This document shows, piece after piece, positions 7,517-48,553 of a stretch of DNA of 64,000 nt. Each line of letters starts with the position of its first letter. Within the stretch, counting starts at the first letter, position 1. This DNA is from a virus, in IMG/VR virus record IMGVR_UViG_3300021476_000002, positions 16,578-80,577 of that record. One strand, 5' to 3'. The translations under genes were made by a program, and so were the position numbers. The notes below the pieces were generated by a model. The model saw only the letters and a program-made list of their open reading frames with translations. It was not told the origin of the DNA and did no database searches.

Positions 7517-8198
7517 ACAAAAGTTTCAATGCGTTGTTTGCGAGTCACAGTTTGAGCGGTGGATAAAGGACGATCAGATTCCAGACCCATGTGTCTGCGA
7601 TTCTCTGTGTAGGTTACGCTATAACCGTAAGAAAGCCCATGAACGATACGAGGAACTGAGCGCACGGCGGTTCTATAAGTTTCCCAAGCCTGGAAAGAAC
7701 CCCGAGACAAGGTTATGGCGTTGTAGGGTCTGTAAGGCGGATATCCCCGCCAAGAGCAGGCGCACGTCGTTTTGCTCTGAAGGGTGTTCAAAGAGGTACT
7801 GGTTCTGTACATCTTCTGCGGCGCAGCGTGCAGCGGTCTTTGAGCGCGACCATGGGGTGTGTACTTATTGTGGCACCGACACAGTAGCGATCAAGGAACG
7901 TTTGGAGTCTATGCCGGGGTACAGAAAATACAATTGGGATATTGGTAGCACAGAGGCAGAACACGCCGAGTATGAGGCCGAGTTAGAGAAATTGGGATTG
8001 AAGGGTAGGATAATCGGCGCGGCGGGCGGTCATTTGTGGGAAGCACATCACAAAACTGCGGTTGCGGAAGGAGGTGGAGGAGAAATCACGGTGGATGATC
8101 TTGCTACTGCGTGCTGGAAATGCCACCCGAAACACACCAGCGAGACAATCCGCAGGCTCAGAAAAACCAAACGCCTATCCCAAACATACGTTCGATAG
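7464..8198 (+). CDS. HNH endonuclease with zinc-finger N-terminus
   Basis: RDHGVCTYCG...WEAHHKTAVAEGGG...LATACWKCHPKHT HNH motif. Confidence 0.85.
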   Translation: MRMKSSRLKRSLRKHVSKQKFQCVVCESQFERWIKDDQIPDPCVCDSLCRLRYNRKKAHERYEELSARRFYKFPKPGKNPETRLWRCRVCKADIPAKSRRTSFCSEGCSKRYWFCTSSAAQRAAVFERDHGVCTYCGTDTVAIKERLESMPGYRKYNWDIGSTEAEHAEYEAELEKLGLKGRIIGAAGGHLWEAHHKTAVAEGGGGEITVDDLATACWKCHPKHTSETIRRLRKTKRLSQTYVR

Positions 8199-11557: not shown

Positions 11558-11836
11558 ATGGAACCTATTAGCGGGCTAGTGATCTTCGTTCTCGTGGTGG
11601 CTTTGTACTTCTTGCCGAGCATCGTGGCGGCATATCGTGGCGTTATGATCTCGCGCAGGAATGCCATTCAGGTTATAAACCTGTTCTTTGGGTGGACGTT
11701 AATCGGTTGGCTGATTGCCTTGGTCATGGCATTTGAGGCCAAGACAACGAAAGAGTACGAGCGTCATGAGGCCGCAGAAGAGGCCATGATCGAGATGGCG
11801 CAGGCCATGAAGGCACAGGCGGGCTTGCAGAAGTAG
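11558..11836 (+). CDS. imm: Superinfection immunity protein (T4 Imm family)
   Basis: LYFLPSIVAAYRG...IQVINLFFGWTLIGWLIALVMA signature. Confidence 0.88.
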   Translation: MEPISGLVIFVLVVALYFLPSIVAAYRGVMISRRNAIQVINLFFGWTLIGWLIALVMAFEAKTTKEYERHEAAEEAMIEMAQAMKAQAGLQK

Positions 11837-11859: not shown

Positions 11860-12030
11860 CGTCGTCTGGGAGGCCGCTTCTTGTTGGCAGAAGAAGCGGC
11901 ACAACGGGGTTCTGCCATGCTCCGAGTCAATAAAGGCTTCAGGCGACTGATTGTTTGAAGGGTCTGGGGATTCTGTTCACACTGTAATCTGTAATTTTGT
12001 TAACACTAAAAAAACCCAGACCCTTGAACT
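11860..12030 (+). ncRNA. Candidate structured RNA/leader (pseudoknot plus long inverted repeat)
   Basis: GCCGCTTC/GAAGCGGC stem whose loop GGCAGAA can pair with TTCTGCC at 11910-16; 11-bp inverted repeat 11958-68/12015-25. Confidence 0.35.
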
Positions 12031-13358: not shown

Positions 13359-13435
13359 CGGGCGGTAGCGCAGTTTGGTAGCGCACATGCCTTGGGCGCA
13401 TGGGGTCACAGGTTCAAATCCTGTCCGCCCGACCA
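13359..13435 (+). tRNA. tRNA-Pro (anticodon UGG)
   Basis: Full cloverleaf: CGGGCGG/CCGCCCG acceptor, GCGC D-stem, CATGC/GCATG with CT-TGG-GC loop, ACAGG-TTCAAAT-CCTGT, ACCA end. Confidence 0.97.
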
Positions 13436-19457: not shown

Positions 19458-20585
19458 GTGACAATCGAAACCCTGCGGTCTTATTTTCCTCGCATTGGTC
19501 GAATTGGTATGGGGTTCATGACCGACACGAAAGCAGATGGTACGAAGGCTAAGCGTCCGTTTCCTGCCCGTACAGAGACGTTTGTATTCCATGCTGACGA
19601 CGAAGACCGTGCCAAAGAGGTTGCGCGTGTTTTTGGTGGCGATGTAGCCGAGGCTATCAGCCGAGACGAAGAGGGCGGGCGCTGGCGAGTTATCACGAAG
19701 GCCAAGGAAATCGAATTCTTTCTTCCAACAGACGATGAGCGGTCGGTGGACTTTTGGATGGAGAAGTGGAACAACCTAGGGGTCGTGCGCCGATGCACCG
19801 GCAATGTGTGCGTCATGGCCGTCGTGGATAGCAAGCCTGACCCACAGACAGGAGAAGTGGTTAAGCAGACGATTCGCAACGTGCCATGTCTGTGCGAACA
19901 GGAGAACGCGCACGGTGAAGACGCCTGCGATACCACTACCAGGATGAACGTTGTGATTCCTGTCCTTAAGGATGCGCCGGGGCTAGGGGTCTGGCAGGTG
20001 CAATCCCGTGGGCGTGGCACGTGTCAAGCCATTAAGGGGTCTATCGAACTGCTTCAGGCGCTTCGGGGGAGTATTGCTCTGACTCCCCTTATTCTCGTGG
20101 CGGGCATGAAGCGCGTGCAGTACGAGGAAGACGGGCAAACCAAGAGCATGAGCGTGCCGCAGATGAGCATTGACACAACACGCTCTATGGGGCAGTACGT
20201 GGAAGAGAAGCGGTCGGCCAGGGCGTTGATTGATGTTCCCGACGTAGACCGAAATCAGCCTGTGATTGGGGCATTACCAGCACCAAAGGCTAAAGAATCT
20301 ACGGAGGTCCCGACCGGAGCGGTGAATGGAGACGCTGACGGTTCGCAGCCTAGGCCAACCGCGCTGGCTCCGGCGGACCCTATTCCCAACGATCAAACCG
20401 CTACTACGGAGCAGCGGTCAAGGTTGTGGGAATACGCTAAGGGACTTGGGATTACAAAGGATGAAGCGCGTTATATTGTAAAAACTCATTTCAACAAACC
20501 AAGCACAGAGGGCATGACTGTCGCGCAACTGGCGCAGGTCAAGGATATCATCACGAAGTTTGCGAGTGGGAGGGAAAAGAAATGA
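19458..20585 (+). CDS. Gp3-like / recombination directionality factor-like protein (phiC31 gp3 family)
   Basis: FPRIGRIGMG...RRCTG...CLCEQ...C...MNVVIP...GLGVWQVQSRG pattern; ERF-like C-terminal tail. Confidence 0.7.
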   Translation: MTIETLRSYFPRIGRIGMGFMTDTKADGTKAKRPFPARTETFVFHADDEDRAKEVARVFGGDVAEAISRDEEGGRWRVITKAKEIEFFLPTDDERSVDFWMEKWNNLGVVRRCTGNVCVMAVVDSKPDPQTGEVVKQTIRNVPCLCEQENAHGEDACDTTTRMNVVIPVLKDAPGLGVWQVQSRGRGTCQAIKGSIELLQALRGSIALTPLILVAGMKRVQYEEDGQTKSMSVPQMSIDTTRSMGQYVEEKRSARALIDVPDVDRNQPVIGALPAPKAKESTEVPTGAVNGDADGSQPRPTALAPADPIPNDQTATTEQRSRLWEYAKGLGITKDEARYIVKTHFNKPSTEGMTVAQLAQVKDIITKFASGREKK

Positions 20586-24191: not shown

Positions 24192-25213
24192 TTGTTGAGA
24201 AGATCAACGCTTACTTAGAGAATACCGGCAAATCCATTACGGACGAGGCCAGGAAGGCTCTTGATATAGCCGTTGAGCAGTTTGGCTATAAAACCCGAAA
24301 GCAGTTTCTTTACGACCGTGAGAACAGGCCAGGGCATCTATATGCTACAGCCTTGACTCATCCTTGTTCCCGCAAAGCAGCGTATAACTATTTTGGATTT
24401 AAGCCCGATGAGGAATTGACCGCGAGGGTGATCTTTAACTTTTGGATAGGAGATACCGTTGAGTTGGGTGTTCTTCTTGTAGCGAGATTAGCCGGGTGTG
24501 ATGTTGGGGTCCCAAGTGACTTTTTGAAAATGACTGGTCCGTGGGAACAGCGCGAGAAGATGAAGGTGAAGTGGAACGACGTGGAGTTGGTTTGTTACCC
24601 TGATGGTGTCGTGCGTGCGGGAGTCGGCAAGGATGAGGTGTATAACAACCTTGAAGTGAAGAAAATGTCTGAGTTTGCTTTCGATCAAATGGAACGCACA
24701 GGCGAGTTAGACGACGCTTGGGGCTACAAGTCTCAGGTTATGTTGGAGGTTCTTGCCTGGAGGCAATTAGGGATTAACGTAACAGGTACGCAGTTCGTAG
24801 CCTGCCGTGGACTAACAGGGAAGTTGGGTGAATGGCATATTCCGTTTGAAACGTCCTATGTTGGGAAAGTTTTCGAGCGTCATACCATAGTGACGAATGC
24901 AACACCGGATAAACTTCCCGACAGGGCGTTTGTTCCTGTGTTGGTGAAACCCAAGCGGAAGGGTGGGGAATACCGAGAGAAGTTGGCTTTGCAATGTTCA
25001 TATTGTCCAATGAAGCGGACGTGTTGGAATGCTGATGGGCGTACAGTCGTAACGGAGATGGAGAGGCAAAAGCCGGTTTTCTATTTGGAGTCTGTTGAGA
25101 AGCAGAAGTTGTCTCTTGAGAATATGGAAACCGTAATGGATAGCGGTCAGAGTCATATAATGAAACCGGGGATGGGGTCTATTAACGACGATGAAGATAC
25201 TGGCGGTTGGTGA
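24167..25213 (+). CDS. Cas4/RecB-like PD-(D/E)XK exonuclease with Fe-S cluster
   Basis: HPCSRK; YPDG; LEVKK; YKSQV; CSYCPMKRTCW (1+3 Cys arrangement). Confidence 0.85.
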   Translation: MGEDGVAVIVEKINAYLENTGKSITDEARKALDIAVEQFGYKTRKQFLYDRENRPGHLYATALTHPCSRKAAYNYFGFKPDEELTARVIFNFWIGDTVELGVLLVARLAGCDVGVPSDFLKMTGPWEQREKMKVKWNDVELVCYPDGVVRAGVGKDEVYNNLEVKKMSEFAFDQMERTGELDDAWGYKSQVMLEVLAWRQLGINVTGTQFVACRGLTGKLGEWHIPFETSYVGKVFERHTIVTNATPDKLPDRAFVPVLVKPKRKGGEYREKLALQCSYCPMKRTCWNADGRTVVTEMERQKPVFYLESVEKQKLSLENMETVMDSGQSHIMKPGMGSINDDEDTGGW

Positions 25214-25401
25214 TGCCTACGTTTTCCTGTGCTGCGTGTAATGGAAAAGTAGAGTCTCAATCAGACCAGTTGTGGTGTACGGGATACACAGGGAAACATC
25301 ACCCCATTACCGAAATGTACATTGTGAAGATGTCTGCTTCGCAGCCTACTAAGGGGAGGGAGAAATATGGGCGCACATCAGGGAAAACCAAGGCAAAGTA
25401 G
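25207..25401 (+). CDS. Small Cys/His hypothetical protein
   Basis: CAAC...C...H. Confidence 0.45.
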   Translation: MVMPTFSCAACNGKVESQSDQLWCTGYTGKHHPITEMYIVKMSASQPTKGREKYGRTSGKTKAK

Positions 25402-26074
25402 GGCGTTGGTTTTGAATCGAGAGCCGGAAGCACCAACCAACGTATCACCAGACAAGGCGAAGATTGCTCATGAACTACATACCGATTTATTGGAGCGTAA
25501 GAACAGGATTACGGCTGAGAGTTTTGCTGTAGCCGCTATTCTTAAGCGTATCCGTGATGAGAGATTCTATGAAGCGTTAGGATACGCGCACTTCCAGGAT
25601 TACGCTCGATCTGTTTTTTCGACAGAGGCTACGGCGCACAAACTCATCTCGGTGTATGAGACCTACTACATACGGAAGCCCCCGATGTTGCCTGAGAATA
25701 CAGACTTGAGTGGGATTGATTATGACAAATTGTATATGGTTCGTCCGATGTTGGACCCAAAGAAGCCGGAAGAATCTGCTGAGTGGGTTGAGAAGGCGCG
25801 GCAGTTGTCTCGAAATGACCTGCGTGAAGTAATGGCTGAGGAGCGTAGGAAGCGTACTGGTCAGTCTGAACCCGAGGTGCAAACCGGTGGTAACGGGGAC
25901 CCCTTTAAGGAGATAAACCGTAAACTCATGCTGTTGGTGGGCAAGGTTATCAATTCCGTGAAGGTTGACAGGGATAGCAGTCTTGTTTTGGTGGCCGAGA
26001 AGACCCGGTTGCGGGTTAGGCCCGATGGGGATTTGATTGACATTCGCGTGACGGAATGGCAAAATGATAAGTAG
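25367..26074 (+). CDS. Hypothetical DNA-binding protein (DUF3102-like)
   Basis: AILKRIRDERFYEALGYAHFQDY...AHKLISVY...IDYDKLY...EWVEKA..LSRNDL pattern. Confidence 0.5.
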   Translation: MGAHQGKPRQSRALVLNREPEAPTNVSPDKAKIAHELHTDLLERKNRITAESFAVAAILKRIRDERFYEALGYAHFQDYARSVFSTEATAHKLISVYETYYIRKPPMLPENTDLSGIDYDKLYMVRPMLDPKKPEESAEWVEKARQLSRNDLREVMAEERRKRTGQSEPEVQTGGNGDPFKEINRKLMLLVGKVINSVKVDRDSSLVLVAEKTRLRVRPDGDLIDIRVTEWQNDK

Positions 26075-26084
26075 TTTAGGAGGG

Positions 26085-26263
26085 TGGGCGGGCTTCATGC
26101 GCCTGACCGGGCGACCGGAAAAAGCCGTGTATCGTAAACAGAACCGTCAAGAAAGATATGTTCCCTGTTAATGTTGGCGGCTCGGTGGCAGGGCGATCAC
26201 GGTGGGTCCCGTTCCGAGTAAAGCAGAGTTGATCGCCTGTCGGAGACTCGGATGGCCTGCCCC
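26085..26263 (+). ncRNA. Candidate structured ncRNA with pseudoknot
   Basis: Closing stem 26085-93/26255-63; CCGG-GCGA-CCGG hairpin; interleaved stems 26187-99/26230-41 and 26213-19/26246-52. Confidence 0.5.
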
Positions 26264-26286
26264 ATAAATTCGTTGAGGAGACTGAT

Positions 26287-26790
26287 TTGAAAGAGCGTGA
26301 TTTCTTGTCTCAGATGCACAAGAGTGCTGAGGAGCAGGGTTATAATCTGTTTAAGATTCCTGACCCCTCTCGCGCCATGTTTAGAAAGAATGGTGGCGCT
26401 AGGTATGTTCAGAAATTGCCGTATGACGCTATTTTCACTGGCCCAGGTAGGGTATTCGCAGTCATAGAGGCTAAGGTTGTGAAGCCGGGCGGGCGGCTTG
26501 AGTTGCGTCCCCACCAGTACACTAACTTAATGCGAGAATACGAATGGGGGAATGGTGCTTGGATTTTAGTTCGTAAAGAGGAACGGAAACCTCCGGCGAC
26601 TGTTTGGGCTGTTCCGATTCATTGGTTTAAGCGTGCTCTCGTAGAAGGGAATGGTAAGTACGTTCAGTACGCGAAGGTCGAAGTCATTGGGTTACCGTTA
26701 AGGAAGATCAAAGGCGGGTGGGATGTGACGCGGCTTACTGCGATGCCTGGAGGTTACTATGGAGGAGGAATGGACTCCACTCAGAATTAG
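26287..26790 (+). CDS. Holliday junction resolvase (RecU-like PD-(D/E)XK)
   Basis: FKIPD...KLPYDAIF...AVIEAKVV...LRPHQ...L. Confidence 0.7.
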   Translation: MKERDFLSQMHKSAEEQGYNLFKIPDPSRAMFRKNGGARYVQKLPYDAIFTGPGRVFAVIEAKVVKPGGRLELRPHQYTNLMREYEWGNGAWILVRKEERKPPATVWAVPIHWFKRALVEGNGKYVQYAKVEVIGLPLRKIKGGWDVTRLTAMPGGYYGGGMDSTQN

Positions 26791-27016
26791 GCAGGTAAAT
26801 GACCGCGAATGGTTGGTTGAGAGCCAAACGCGGGCAGGGGTAAGATACACAGTCACGCTTGAGAAGAATGTTTTGAAGTGTGACTGCGAAGGATATCACT
26901 ACCGACAGAAGTGTACGCACGTGCAAGTGGTTGAGCCGGAAGTTCCGGCATATCTATACGAGGAGGTAGCAGACGATGTTTGGAAATCGGAAGGAGGGGA
27001 CAGGAGTGACCAGTAA
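26759..27016 (+). CDS. SWIM zinc-finger protein
   Basis: YTVTL...CDCEGY.YRQKCTHV (CxCxnCxH). Confidence 0.8.
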   Translation: MEEEWTPLRIRQVNDREWLVESQTRAGVRYTVTLEKNVLKCDCEGYHYRQKCTHVQVVEPEVPAYLYEEVADDVWKSEGGDRSDQ

Positions 27017-27455
27017 CGCGGGGTTGCCACAGGAGTCTAGCGGTCTAGTGCATAAGGCTGACGTGGAGTATGACGATACCGCCTGGGAAGACATGATGGA
27101 GGCCAAATTGGACCGGATTGAGAAGGCGCTGGAGGGTCTAACAAGGCATCTGGGCGTCCGTCAAGGAGGGCCGCGTCGGTCGTTTGTCGCTAGGGATGTC
27201 CAACGGCGCGACCACGCTTCCTCGAAGCCAGAAGACCAGAAGGAGTATGCCCCCGGTGCGCGGTTTACAGGCGTCGTACAGACGTTCGATAAGGGGTGGG
27301 GGTGGATTGATTGTAAGGAAGAGAAGCGGTCTTTCTTTGTTCACCGTGAGAACGTAGAGGACCGTGATGAGTTATCCCCAGGGGATAACGTGGAATTCTC
27401 TGTGGGGAACTCTAAGGACGGGCGGCAGCGTGCTGTGGAGGTAAAGAGGGCATGA
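27006..27455 (+). CDS. Cold-shock-domain (CSD) protein with N-terminal extension
   Basis: TGVVQTFDKGWGWI...FFVHRENV...L.PGDNVEFSV...RAVEV. Confidence 0.85.
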   Translation: MTSNAGLPQESSGLVHKADVEYDDTAWEDMMEAKLDRIEKALEGLTRHLGVRQGGPRRSFVARDVQRRDHASSKPEDQKEYAPGARFTGVVQTFDKGWGWIDCKEEKRSFFVHRENVEDRDELSPGDNVEFSVGNSKDGRQRAVEVKRA

Positions 27456-27516
27456 GTTGGTCTGACGTTGTAGCCCTCGCTGTTATCATTGCGTTTCTGT
27501 ATCTGTTGGTACGCGG

Positions 27517-28338
27517 ATGAGAGGCGCACCGTTAACACAGGCTGAACAGAAACGATCAAGCGTTGTCCTGTCGTGCATGTGGGCTTCTTTGGTGGCGTTG
27601 TTGACTATTATGGTGGTGTTGTCCAACTTTGGCAACAAGGCCATTTTAGGCAACTCTCCCCAACGACGAGAGGATAGTGTCTTCCTTGTCCTGATCGTGA
27701 ATAAATTGGGATTCGCGGTCGGGTCAGGGACAGGGTTCTTTTTGACTCAAGATGGTCTGGCCATGACGGATAGTCATGTGACATGGTATCCCGTGCATGA
27801 GCCAGGATTATATCGTGTCGTAGCAATCTACAAGAACGAGTTTTATGATGTGAATGTTTTGTGTTCCTCGGATTTGGATGCAGTACCAAATGGTAATGCT
27901 GTGCATCTCCAAAGGGACTTGGCGTTTCTTCGTGTGACGCCGGAGTCAAATTGGGATGGGGAGCCGATTGTTAACGATCAGGAACGATATCTTCCTGGGT
28001 CACAGACTATCTTTCCAGGTGTCCCCCTTATTGAGAGACCGGAAAATGGTGAACTCGTGACTGTGATTGGTTTTCCTGGAGGGCACAATCAAGTCGTAGA
28101 TTTTGAGGGTAGGGTTGTTGGGATAAAAAGTATCAAAGGTGGAGAGGGCGAGTATATTGATTTTGCTGGAGATCGTCCTGGGCCGGGGGCAAGCGGTGGG
28201 CTTGTTGTTGGGCAAGACGGTGCTGCGGTGGGTATTTGGACGTGGCATTTTAATGCAAGCCATATGGGTGTAGCCCAGATTCTCCCTTCGTTTCTGTCTG
28301 GACAAAAGGATGTGCCGTTGGGAGAGTGGTGCCATTGA
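27517..28338 (+). CDS. Membrane-anchored trypsin-like serine protease
   Basis: N-terminal TM; GSGTGFF, TDSHV (His), DLAFL (Asp), GASGG (Ser). Confidence 0.88.
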   Translation: MRGAPLTQAEQKRSSVVLSCMWASLVALLTIMVVLSNFGNKAILGNSPQRREDSVFLVLIVNKLGFAVGSGTGFFLTQDGLAMTDSHVTWYPVHEPGLYRVVAIYKNEFYDVNVLCSSDLDAVPNGNAVHLQRDLAFLRVTPESNWDGEPIVNDQERYLPGSQTIFPGVPLIERPENGELVTVIGFPGGHNQVVDFEGRVVGIKSIKGGEGEYIDFAGDRPGPGASGGLVVGQDGAAVGIWTWHFNASHMGVAQILPSFLSGQKDVPLGEWCH

Positions 28339-36205: not shown

Positions 36206-36457
36206 ATGAAGGGTGAACTGATTCCGTTGGGCGTTGTAGTGAAGCCTTACGGTAAGGTTGGCGCTGTTATGGTTATAAGTGGTGAGCGGTATTATTTTTT
36301 GGTAGATCGTCGCGGCGGTGTGGCTATGATGCCTGCTGATGTAATCGAATCGCGGCGGCGTAGTTCAATGGTAGAATCCGACTCTTATAAAGCCGGGACG
36401 CTGGTTCGATTCCAGACGCCGCCACCAGCAGAGAAGACATCATTTACGAGCAAGTAG
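36206..36457 (+). CDS. Hypothetical protein whose 3' third overlaps a tRNA
   Basis: ORF track; the frame runs through the tRNA. Confidence 0.45.
   Translation: MKGELIPLGVVVKPYGKVGAVMVISGERYYFLVDRRGGVAMMPADVIESRRRSSMVESDSYKAGTLVRFQTPPPAEKTSFTSK
36354..36427 (+). tRNA. tRNA-Ile (anticodon UAU)
   Basis: GGCGGCG/CGCCGCC acceptor plus ACCA; GTTC-AATGGTA-GAAT D-arm; CGACT/AGCCG with CT-TAT-AA loop; GCTGG-TTCGATT-CCAGA T-arm; two stem mismatches. Confidence 0.85.
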
Positions 36458-44945: not shown

Positions 44946-45170
44946 CCCGTAAAAATACGGGCATGAAGCCTGTTCTTCCGAGCGCGGAAGGGCCGTCGTG
45001 AGCCGACGATACGGCACTTGCCCGTAGGAATTATAAATCCGGGATAGCGTGACGGCGCGAGACGGCAGGCGGGAACTAAGGTGAGGCAGGGACACTTCCT
45101 CGGCATGTGTCTTTCCTGTCTAATCGGGTAGTCCGAGGTAATCCGAACGCCTAGCCTGCCTTCCCGGAGG
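44940..45170 (+). ncRNA. Candidate ~230-nt two-domain structured ncRNA
   Basis: Domain I closed by ACGGGCA/TGCCCGT with two internal hairpins; domain II closed by CCGGGA/TCCCGG and GGCAGGC/GCCTGCC with a 12-bp internal hairpin. Confidence 0.6.
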
Positions 45171-48217: not shown

Positions 48218-48274
48218 TCGTGGTACTACAAAACAGTAGTAGTTGTTGACTTTGGTAAAGCGGATTGATATATT
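48211..48274 (+). promoter_or_regulatory. Sigma70-type promoter with upstream inverted repeat
   Basis: TTTGTAGT-N6-ACTACAAA 48211-32; TTGACT-17-TATATT. Confidence 0.65.
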
Positions 48275-48280
48275 AAGCAT

Positions 48281-48408
48281 GTCAGTTATGGCTGAAAGAC
48301 GGGGACGCTGGCTCTAGCGGGCAATAACAGAGCAGGCGTCCCATAAAGATTGGGGCACCGGGGGATGGTAATGCGCCGTGCGCGTTGCCGTCCCCTAAAT
48401 CTTTTTAA
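48281..48408 (+). ncRNA. Structured leader/sRNA ending in a terminator-like hairpin
   Basis: GGGACGC..GCTCT/AGAGC..GCGTCCC hairpin; 16-bp hairpin 48361-95 with three G-U pairs followed by TCTTTTT. Confidence 0.5.
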
Positions 48409-48424
48409 GAAAGGAGGGAAAAAT

Positions 48425-48553
48425 ATGGTGCATTTCCTGGTTCATGATCTTCCTTGGATTGCTGTTGGTTTTGTTGTTGGTGGTTTCTTTCCCGCTTGGG
48501 CATTGGCAGCCGCGAAGTGGGTTGCCGCCGAGTGGAGTCAGTACGTTCATTAG
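48425..48553 (+). CDS. 42-aa hydrophobic membrane peptide
   Basis: AAGGAGG RBS; MVHFLVHDLPWIAVGFVVGGFFPAWALAAAKWVAAEWSQYVH. Confidence 0.6.
   Translation: MVHFLVHDLPWIAVGFVVGGFFPAWALAAAKWVAAEWSQYVH

Follow-up and report, generated by a model that had tools for sequence, protein, structure and literature searches.

A clamped, pseudoknotted RNA element, predicted upstream of a phage resolvase gene, that may act as a nuclease-resistant leader

The stretch of DNA considered here (the window) comprises 64,000 nucleotides of a 113,878-nt IMG/VR phage record, IMGVR_UViG_3300021476_000002, which is 87% complete and derives from an uncultured 114-kb phage; all coordinates are those of the window. Among a series of genes for replication and recombination, all on the plus strand, lies a gap of 212 nt (26075-26286), bounded upstream by a gene for a 235-aa protein (25367-26074, plus strand) and downstream by a gene for a RecU-like Holliday-junction resolvase (phrog_843; its relatives carry PF03838). 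The resolvase gene, also on the plus strand, spans 26275-26790 with its ribosome-binding site (RBS, 26275-80) and is read from a TTG codon at 26287 to 26790, a start that agrees with those of its relatives in alignment. A zinc-finger gene also lies downstream, and the second gene beyond the resolvase encodes a cold-shock-domain protein; this protein, which has a long N-terminal extension, and a membrane-anchored trypsin-like protease are both encoded within 26976-28338. The two flanking proteins find only themselves as close matches among 5.8 billion proteins, and searches with the neighbouring genes found no close relatives. The element described below has a GC content of 59%, compared with 50% in both flanking genes. 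The nearest tRNA gene is 10 kb away; the tRNAs include a tRNA-Ile with the rare UAU anticodon (36354-36427) and a tRNA-Pro(UGG) (13359-13435).

The last codons of the upstream gene include a strong sigma-70-type promoter (26037-26065, plus strand) that is absent from the first-pass annotation of this DNA, with a perfect -35 element, a 17-nt spacer, an extended TG and a -10 element matching at 4/6 positions. The genome has 10 sites of such quality, where shuffled sequence has 0.26. Transcription is predicted to start at about 26071-26073, some 15 nt ahead of the element, and, since no intrinsic terminator is found in 24500-28000, the transcript should run into the resolvase gene, which should be the first gene that this promoter drives. 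An operator scan of the promoter found neither the phage operator nor a LexA box, whereas the operator is common to seven other promoter regions, and several promoters have a LexA box of the Gram-positive type. Most of the strong promoters have this operator, an imperfect palindrome of the form RCTAC, 3-6 nt, GTRG, on or close to them (8227, 9763, 13476, 15514, 30913, 44932 and 48225). The LexA boxes, at 8181, 9728, 13448, 30948 and 37035, would be consistent with a host that bears RNase J.

Just behind the predicted start lies a Shine-Dalgarno-like hexamer (26078-26083, plus strand) that has no well-spaced start codon: the ATG at 26097 is 13 nt away, in the tail of the genome's distribution, with most genes having a spacing of 5-11. 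That ATG opens a frame of 24 codons (26097-26171, plus strand) which had been put forward in the first-pass annotation as the basis for possible attenuation. The frame exists, but its codon score of -3.4 equals the off-frame mean, only 1.3% of in-frame windows score so low and there is no terminator, so that it is probably not a gene and attenuation is unsupported. No similar peptide is encoded elsewhere in the genome. Apart from its single stop the frame is open for 56 codons (26097-26267), and codon scores are off-frame-like on either side of that stop. A type I toxin mRNA was rejected, the peptide being hydrophilic and a nearby antisense promoter absent, as was readthrough, frameshifting or bypass into the resolvase, whose TTG start matches those of the relatives and for which there is no slippery site. 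A mobile insertion with target duplication was likewise set aside, because the two Shine-Dalgarno sites account for the 9-nt near-repeat found at 26074 and 26272.

The gap is predicted to fold as a clamped RNA domain of 177 nt (26086-26262, plus strand), the clamp covering the gap almost exactly. The closing helix, P1 (26086-94/26254-62), has the nine base pairs originally described, but two of them, rather than one, are G-U and the terminal T-A pair once proposed does not exist, position 26263 being C. Its pair probability is 0.6 at 37 °C and 0.83-0.86 at 55-65 °C. Inside the clamp, a GNRA hairpin at 26107-26118 had been expected; it has a pair probability of about 0 and is disfavoured because it is excluded by a competing hairpin of 5 bp, P2 (26100-26113, plus strand; 26100-04/26109-13), which prevails at 0.5-0.75. 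There follows an irregular, weakly determined arm, P3 (26114-26186, plus strand), with an A-rich bulge and loop, an ambiguous register and a tested pair probability of no more than 0.26. The remainder of the domain is occupied by the interleaved helices that the first reading had recognised, and these would make up an H-type pseudoknot whose loops measure 13, 10 and 4 nt. Stem S1 (26187-26241, plus strand; 26187-99/26230-41) has 12 bp with G26193 bulged and would arise co-transcriptionally once position 26240 has been made; stem S2 (26213-26252, plus strand; 26213-19/26246-52) has 7 Watson-Crick pairs, with a probability of 0.98 in the nested ensemble, and can gain 3 bp beyond a bulged U at the price of two P1 pairs. 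The sequence thought to offer 26214-19 an alternative partner is indeed present at 26180-85, but its pair probability is about 0 and switching is unsupported. From the 3' end of the clamp to the resolvase RBS is 12 nt, and the one pairing predicted for the RBS is a weak local hairpin, gone at 55 °C; with the RBS outside the clamp and only weakly paired, there is no clear platform for a switch.

How far this fold exceeds expectation depends on the measure. The clamp and pseudoknot together are matched in 23 of 5000 dinucleotide shuffles (p about 0.005); 3 of 1516 genome windows score equally, and a coding window at 19874 equals the element on the same statistic. The pseudoknot alone is matched in 0 of 60 shuffles (z -3.2), or in 7 of 400 under looser scoring. 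These statistics were devised after the fold had been seen. On the minus strand the score is close to the average of the shuffles, and the G-U pairs of the element also favour the plus strand. Nested folding is unexceptional (z -1.6, and +0.4 on a 230-nt window), and in the nested ensemble S1 has a probability of only about 0.01. For the pseudoknotted form the energy is -66.7, to which S2 adds about -15 while no loop penalty has yet been applied, and the nested minimum is -73.7; allowing for that penalty, the model places the two at about the same level. S1 appears first during transcription, which provides a kinetic route to the knot. We conclude that this is probably, with good though not complete confidence, a real structured RNA element of the plus strand, of which one sequence is known.

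That the element belongs to none of the catalogued RNA families is supported by comparison with them. No Rfam 15 family reaches its gathering threshold (a search extended to E 10 gave nothing but two chance matches, the best at E 6.2), and, as the first reading had stated, the hallmarks of RNase P and SRP are absent: the CR-I and CR-V motifs that form P4 in RNase P were not found, and the likeness of S2, with its bulged U, to P4 is superficial. With regard to tmRNA the same reading holds in part. The T-arm, the D-loop motif and the tag are absent and ARAGORN is negative, but an acceptor-like stem can be read in 26088-94/26254-60, with a G-U pair at position 3 and C-CCA at 26261-64; the stem, however, runs two pairs further, and the discriminator is C, not A. 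So read, the element would resemble tmRNA and TLD in the G-U pair at position 3 of its closing helix and in the CCA; it has, like them, an internal short frame followed by a pseudoknot, and differs from them in having neither T-arm nor D-loop motif nor an alanine-ending tag before the stop; three-frame translation yields no tag frame of hydrophobic residues, Ala-Ala and stop. The core motifs of the hammerhead, HDV, twister, pistol, hairpin and glmS ribozymes and the hallmarks of group I and II introns are absent, only GAAA being present, and a permuted group I, twister or pistol core was rejected by inspection. In telomerase RNAs and DRT ncRNAs, the template-pseudoknot core runs from an enclosing helix through a hairpin, a weakly paired A-rich stretch and a pseudoknot back to the enclosing helix. 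The element has the same order of parts, a likeness that is topological only, and a search for the reverse transcriptase of a retron or DRT system found none in the 87%-complete genome.

Other comparisons concern function as well as form. With rnaC and rnaD of T4 (species 1 and 2, whose function is still unknown; PMC9697503), the element shares its character as a folded intergenic phage RNA, in the range of 120-190 nt, with paired ends and without a terminator of its own; it matches them in neither sequence nor model, does not lie in a tRNA cluster, unlike them, and has no counterpart of the T-arm-like hairpin of rnaC. For an attenuator or riboswitch platform, neither a terminator nor RBS sequestration was found. 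The features by which 5' mRNA stabilisers are recognised, a promoter-proximal Shine-Dalgarno sequence or strong 5' structure, are predicted here from sequence only. Like the stabilisers of Bacilli (STAB-SD of cryIIIA, the ermC leader; PMC3997798) and the exoribonuclease-resistant RNAs (xrRNAs; PMC5760640), the element combines a promoter-proximal Shine-Dalgarno sequence lacking a good start with strong structure and a pseudoknot before a coding sequence; in contrast to these, it is a clamped, multi-helix domain of 177 nt, itself a prediction, in which the ring-like geometry of xrRNAs is not seen. It also recalls the translational operator of T4 gene 32 (PMC3014915), where an H-type pseudoknot likewise stands ahead of the RBS in a gene of DNA metabolism, but its stems and loops are longer, a closing helix surrounds them, the A/U linker is short, the gene downstream is a resolvase and the leader is absent in relatives.

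The closest relatives of the resolvase have identities of 33-44%. At the syntenic locus L187, a homologue of the 235-aa gene (35% over 97 aa, E 8e-13) lies upstream and overlaps the start of the resolvase gene. L186 and L188 have a small gene overlapping that start, and two further contigs have gaps of 78 and 22 nt there; the long gap is absent before the resolvase in these four. L185 has 322 uncalled bases that do not resemble the element. Genes of 62-67 aa occupy the position of the element in relatives. The overlap of the flanking genes in L187, and the absence of such a leader in relatives, imply that the element is accessory rather than a conserved resolvase leader. Homologues were not found by blastn of phages and plasmids, and pattern scans of viral contigs, metagenomes and genomes gave matches that on inspection were all chance, coding or the end of an insertion sequence. 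A single-sequence covariance model, an insensitive tool, found nothing in the phage's own genome, in 56 loci or in 302 sampled genomes of two phyla. These scans also drew attention to hairpins that mark the ends of insertion sequences and lie immediately upstream of transposase-like genes, with no Rfam match where scanned (L020, L039, L042, L052, L058 and L078), and to near-identical metagenome stretches that by eye resemble part of a group I intron (L045, L088, L092, L102 and L106).

Kinship with an RNA near 45 kb, suggested earlier on the strength of an identical 3' closing strand, does not survive scrutiny: the shared 7-mer occurs 19 times on the two strands of the window, as by chance, the element model gives E 1.6 at that leader and its pseudoknot is matched in 22 of 60 shuffles. 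This leader, which follows ssb (45084-45138), may form a pseudoknot, not above chance by the same shuffles, and has in common with S1 the sequence of a 6-bp helix. Elsewhere, an H-type pseudoknot of 9 bp and 7 bp without a central loop (11873-11916; 0 of 60 shuffles, z -2.8) lies behind a promoter-like site near 11825 and is geometrically more classical than the element in the gap, and the leader at 48246-48480 has the strongest nested folding among 14 promoter-proximal regions (z -3.55).

The start-less Shine-Dalgarno sequence, the clamped pseudoknot and the want of a switch platform, taken with two precedents, lead us to favour, tentatively and at somewhat less than an even chance, a nuclease-resistant 5' domain that would stabilise the transcript of the resolvase and may persist after it as an RNA of about 190 nt. 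The precedents are that in Bacilli mRNA is stabilised by 5' roadblocks and by Shine-Dalgarno sequences that lack a start codon (PMC3997798) and that a pseudoknotted viral RNA blocks RNase J1 in vitro (PMC5760640); the pseudoknot at 11873-11916 has also been counted in favour. An internal sigma-70 promoter of an accessory expression unit would start the transcript, the first 190 nt or so of which would fold as a domain clamped 5' to 3' and pseudoknotted, and transcription would continue through the resolvase, zinc-finger and cold-shock-domain genes. The start-less Shine-Dalgarno sequence, closing helix and pseudoknot would together slow 5'-to-3' attack of the RNase J type and so stabilise the downstream message, and, once the message had decayed from its 3' side, the clamp would leave a stable RNA of about 190 nt. 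The analysis shows the promoter-like site, helices in excess of chance, the lack of a terminator, an RBS that lies beyond the clamp and the element's absence from syntenic relatives; we infer pseudoknot formation in vivo, the role as a barrier and the stable product. Against this reading, 177 nt is far more than a stabiliser requires, and the low probability of S1 in the nested ensemble, the pseudoknotted form being no better than about level in energy with the nested minimum, the coding window at 19874 and the lack of a homologue also count.

The favoured reading overlaps with one in which the product that matters is a discrete small RNA of 180-195 nt acting in trans, excised from a longer transcript in the manner of T4 rnaC/rnaD and serving as a decoy or scaffold for a host or phage protein, its proximity to the resolvase being incidental; the two differ in which product matters. 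We regard this as a minority possibility to be taken seriously: the ends are zipped as in processed stable RNAs, the element is accessory relative to its neighbours, the promoter, free of the operator found in seven other promoter regions, may fire while those are repressed, and the inner 7 bp of P1 are acceptor-stem-like, with the G-U at position 3 and then C-CCA at 26261-64. On the other hand, it has no terminator and no T-arm, its discriminator is C rather than A, the best antisense target in the genome is 12 nt and so a long one is absent, the 87%-complete genome has no reverse transcriptase and homologues were not found. A bolder form, which we consider decidedly unlikely, is a new class of small stable RNAs of phages, transcribed from a promoter that is not repressed and then matured, in which the clamp would mimic an alanine acceptor end, the pseudoknot would replace the T-arm and the RNA would act in trans as a decoy for host proteins that handle tRNA or tmRNA. 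That a GC-rich spacer, or the remains of a small gene, folds in this way by chance and is no more than the untranslated leader of an internal promoter is unlikely without being negligible. The ordinary nested energy, the post hoc choice of a statistic that some coding windows equal, the frame 26097-26267 open bar one stop and the 62-67-aa genes of relatives at the same position all suit it, but the joint p of about 0.005, a clamp spanning nearly the whole gap, the off-frame-like codon scores on both sides of the stop and a GC content 9 points above that of the flanking genes do not.

The remaining explanations give the element a regulatory or catalytic role. A translational operator of the gene 32 type, on which the resolvase, the cold-shock-domain protein or SSB would bind the pseudoknot or multi-way junction and spread across the A/U-rich stretch to the resolvase RBS, is quite improbable: the leader is absent in resolvase relatives, the unpaired linker is only 12 nt and the junction is not a perfect four-way one, against which stand a pseudoknot that stops 35 nt short of the start, followed by an A/U-rich linker, the cold-shock-domain gene two genes downstream, the use by T4 gp32 of a pseudoknot 67 nt upstream (PMC3014915) and a report of candidate RNAs that precede resolvase and RusA genes in phages (PMC10690425). 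Very unlikely is control by a leader peptide, whereby ribosomes on the 24-codon frame would open P1 and alter downstream expression. Promoter, Shine-Dalgarno sequence and ATG are ordered here as at other promoters of the phage and P1 covers the spacer between the latter two, but codon usage is off-frame, the spacing long, a terminator and a regulatory codon run are lacking, and the local fold of the resolvase RBS is unchanged under simulated ribosome footprints. A compact pseudoknot of about 66 nt beside a multi-way junction, set between two phage genes, could, finally, belong to a ribozyme, self-cleaving or splicing, whose class has yet to be recognised; with the hallmark motifs of the classes listed above absent and no Rfam match, we give this only a slight chance.

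The weight of the finding is limited for now by its resting on a single copy, in a phage for which close relatives were not found. Little is understood either of the natural pseudoknots that obstruct 5'-to-3' decay in bacteria or of the small stable RNAs that phages make, and a self-contained unit of 190 nt with its own promoter, as predicted here, is one that can easily be synthesised and tested.
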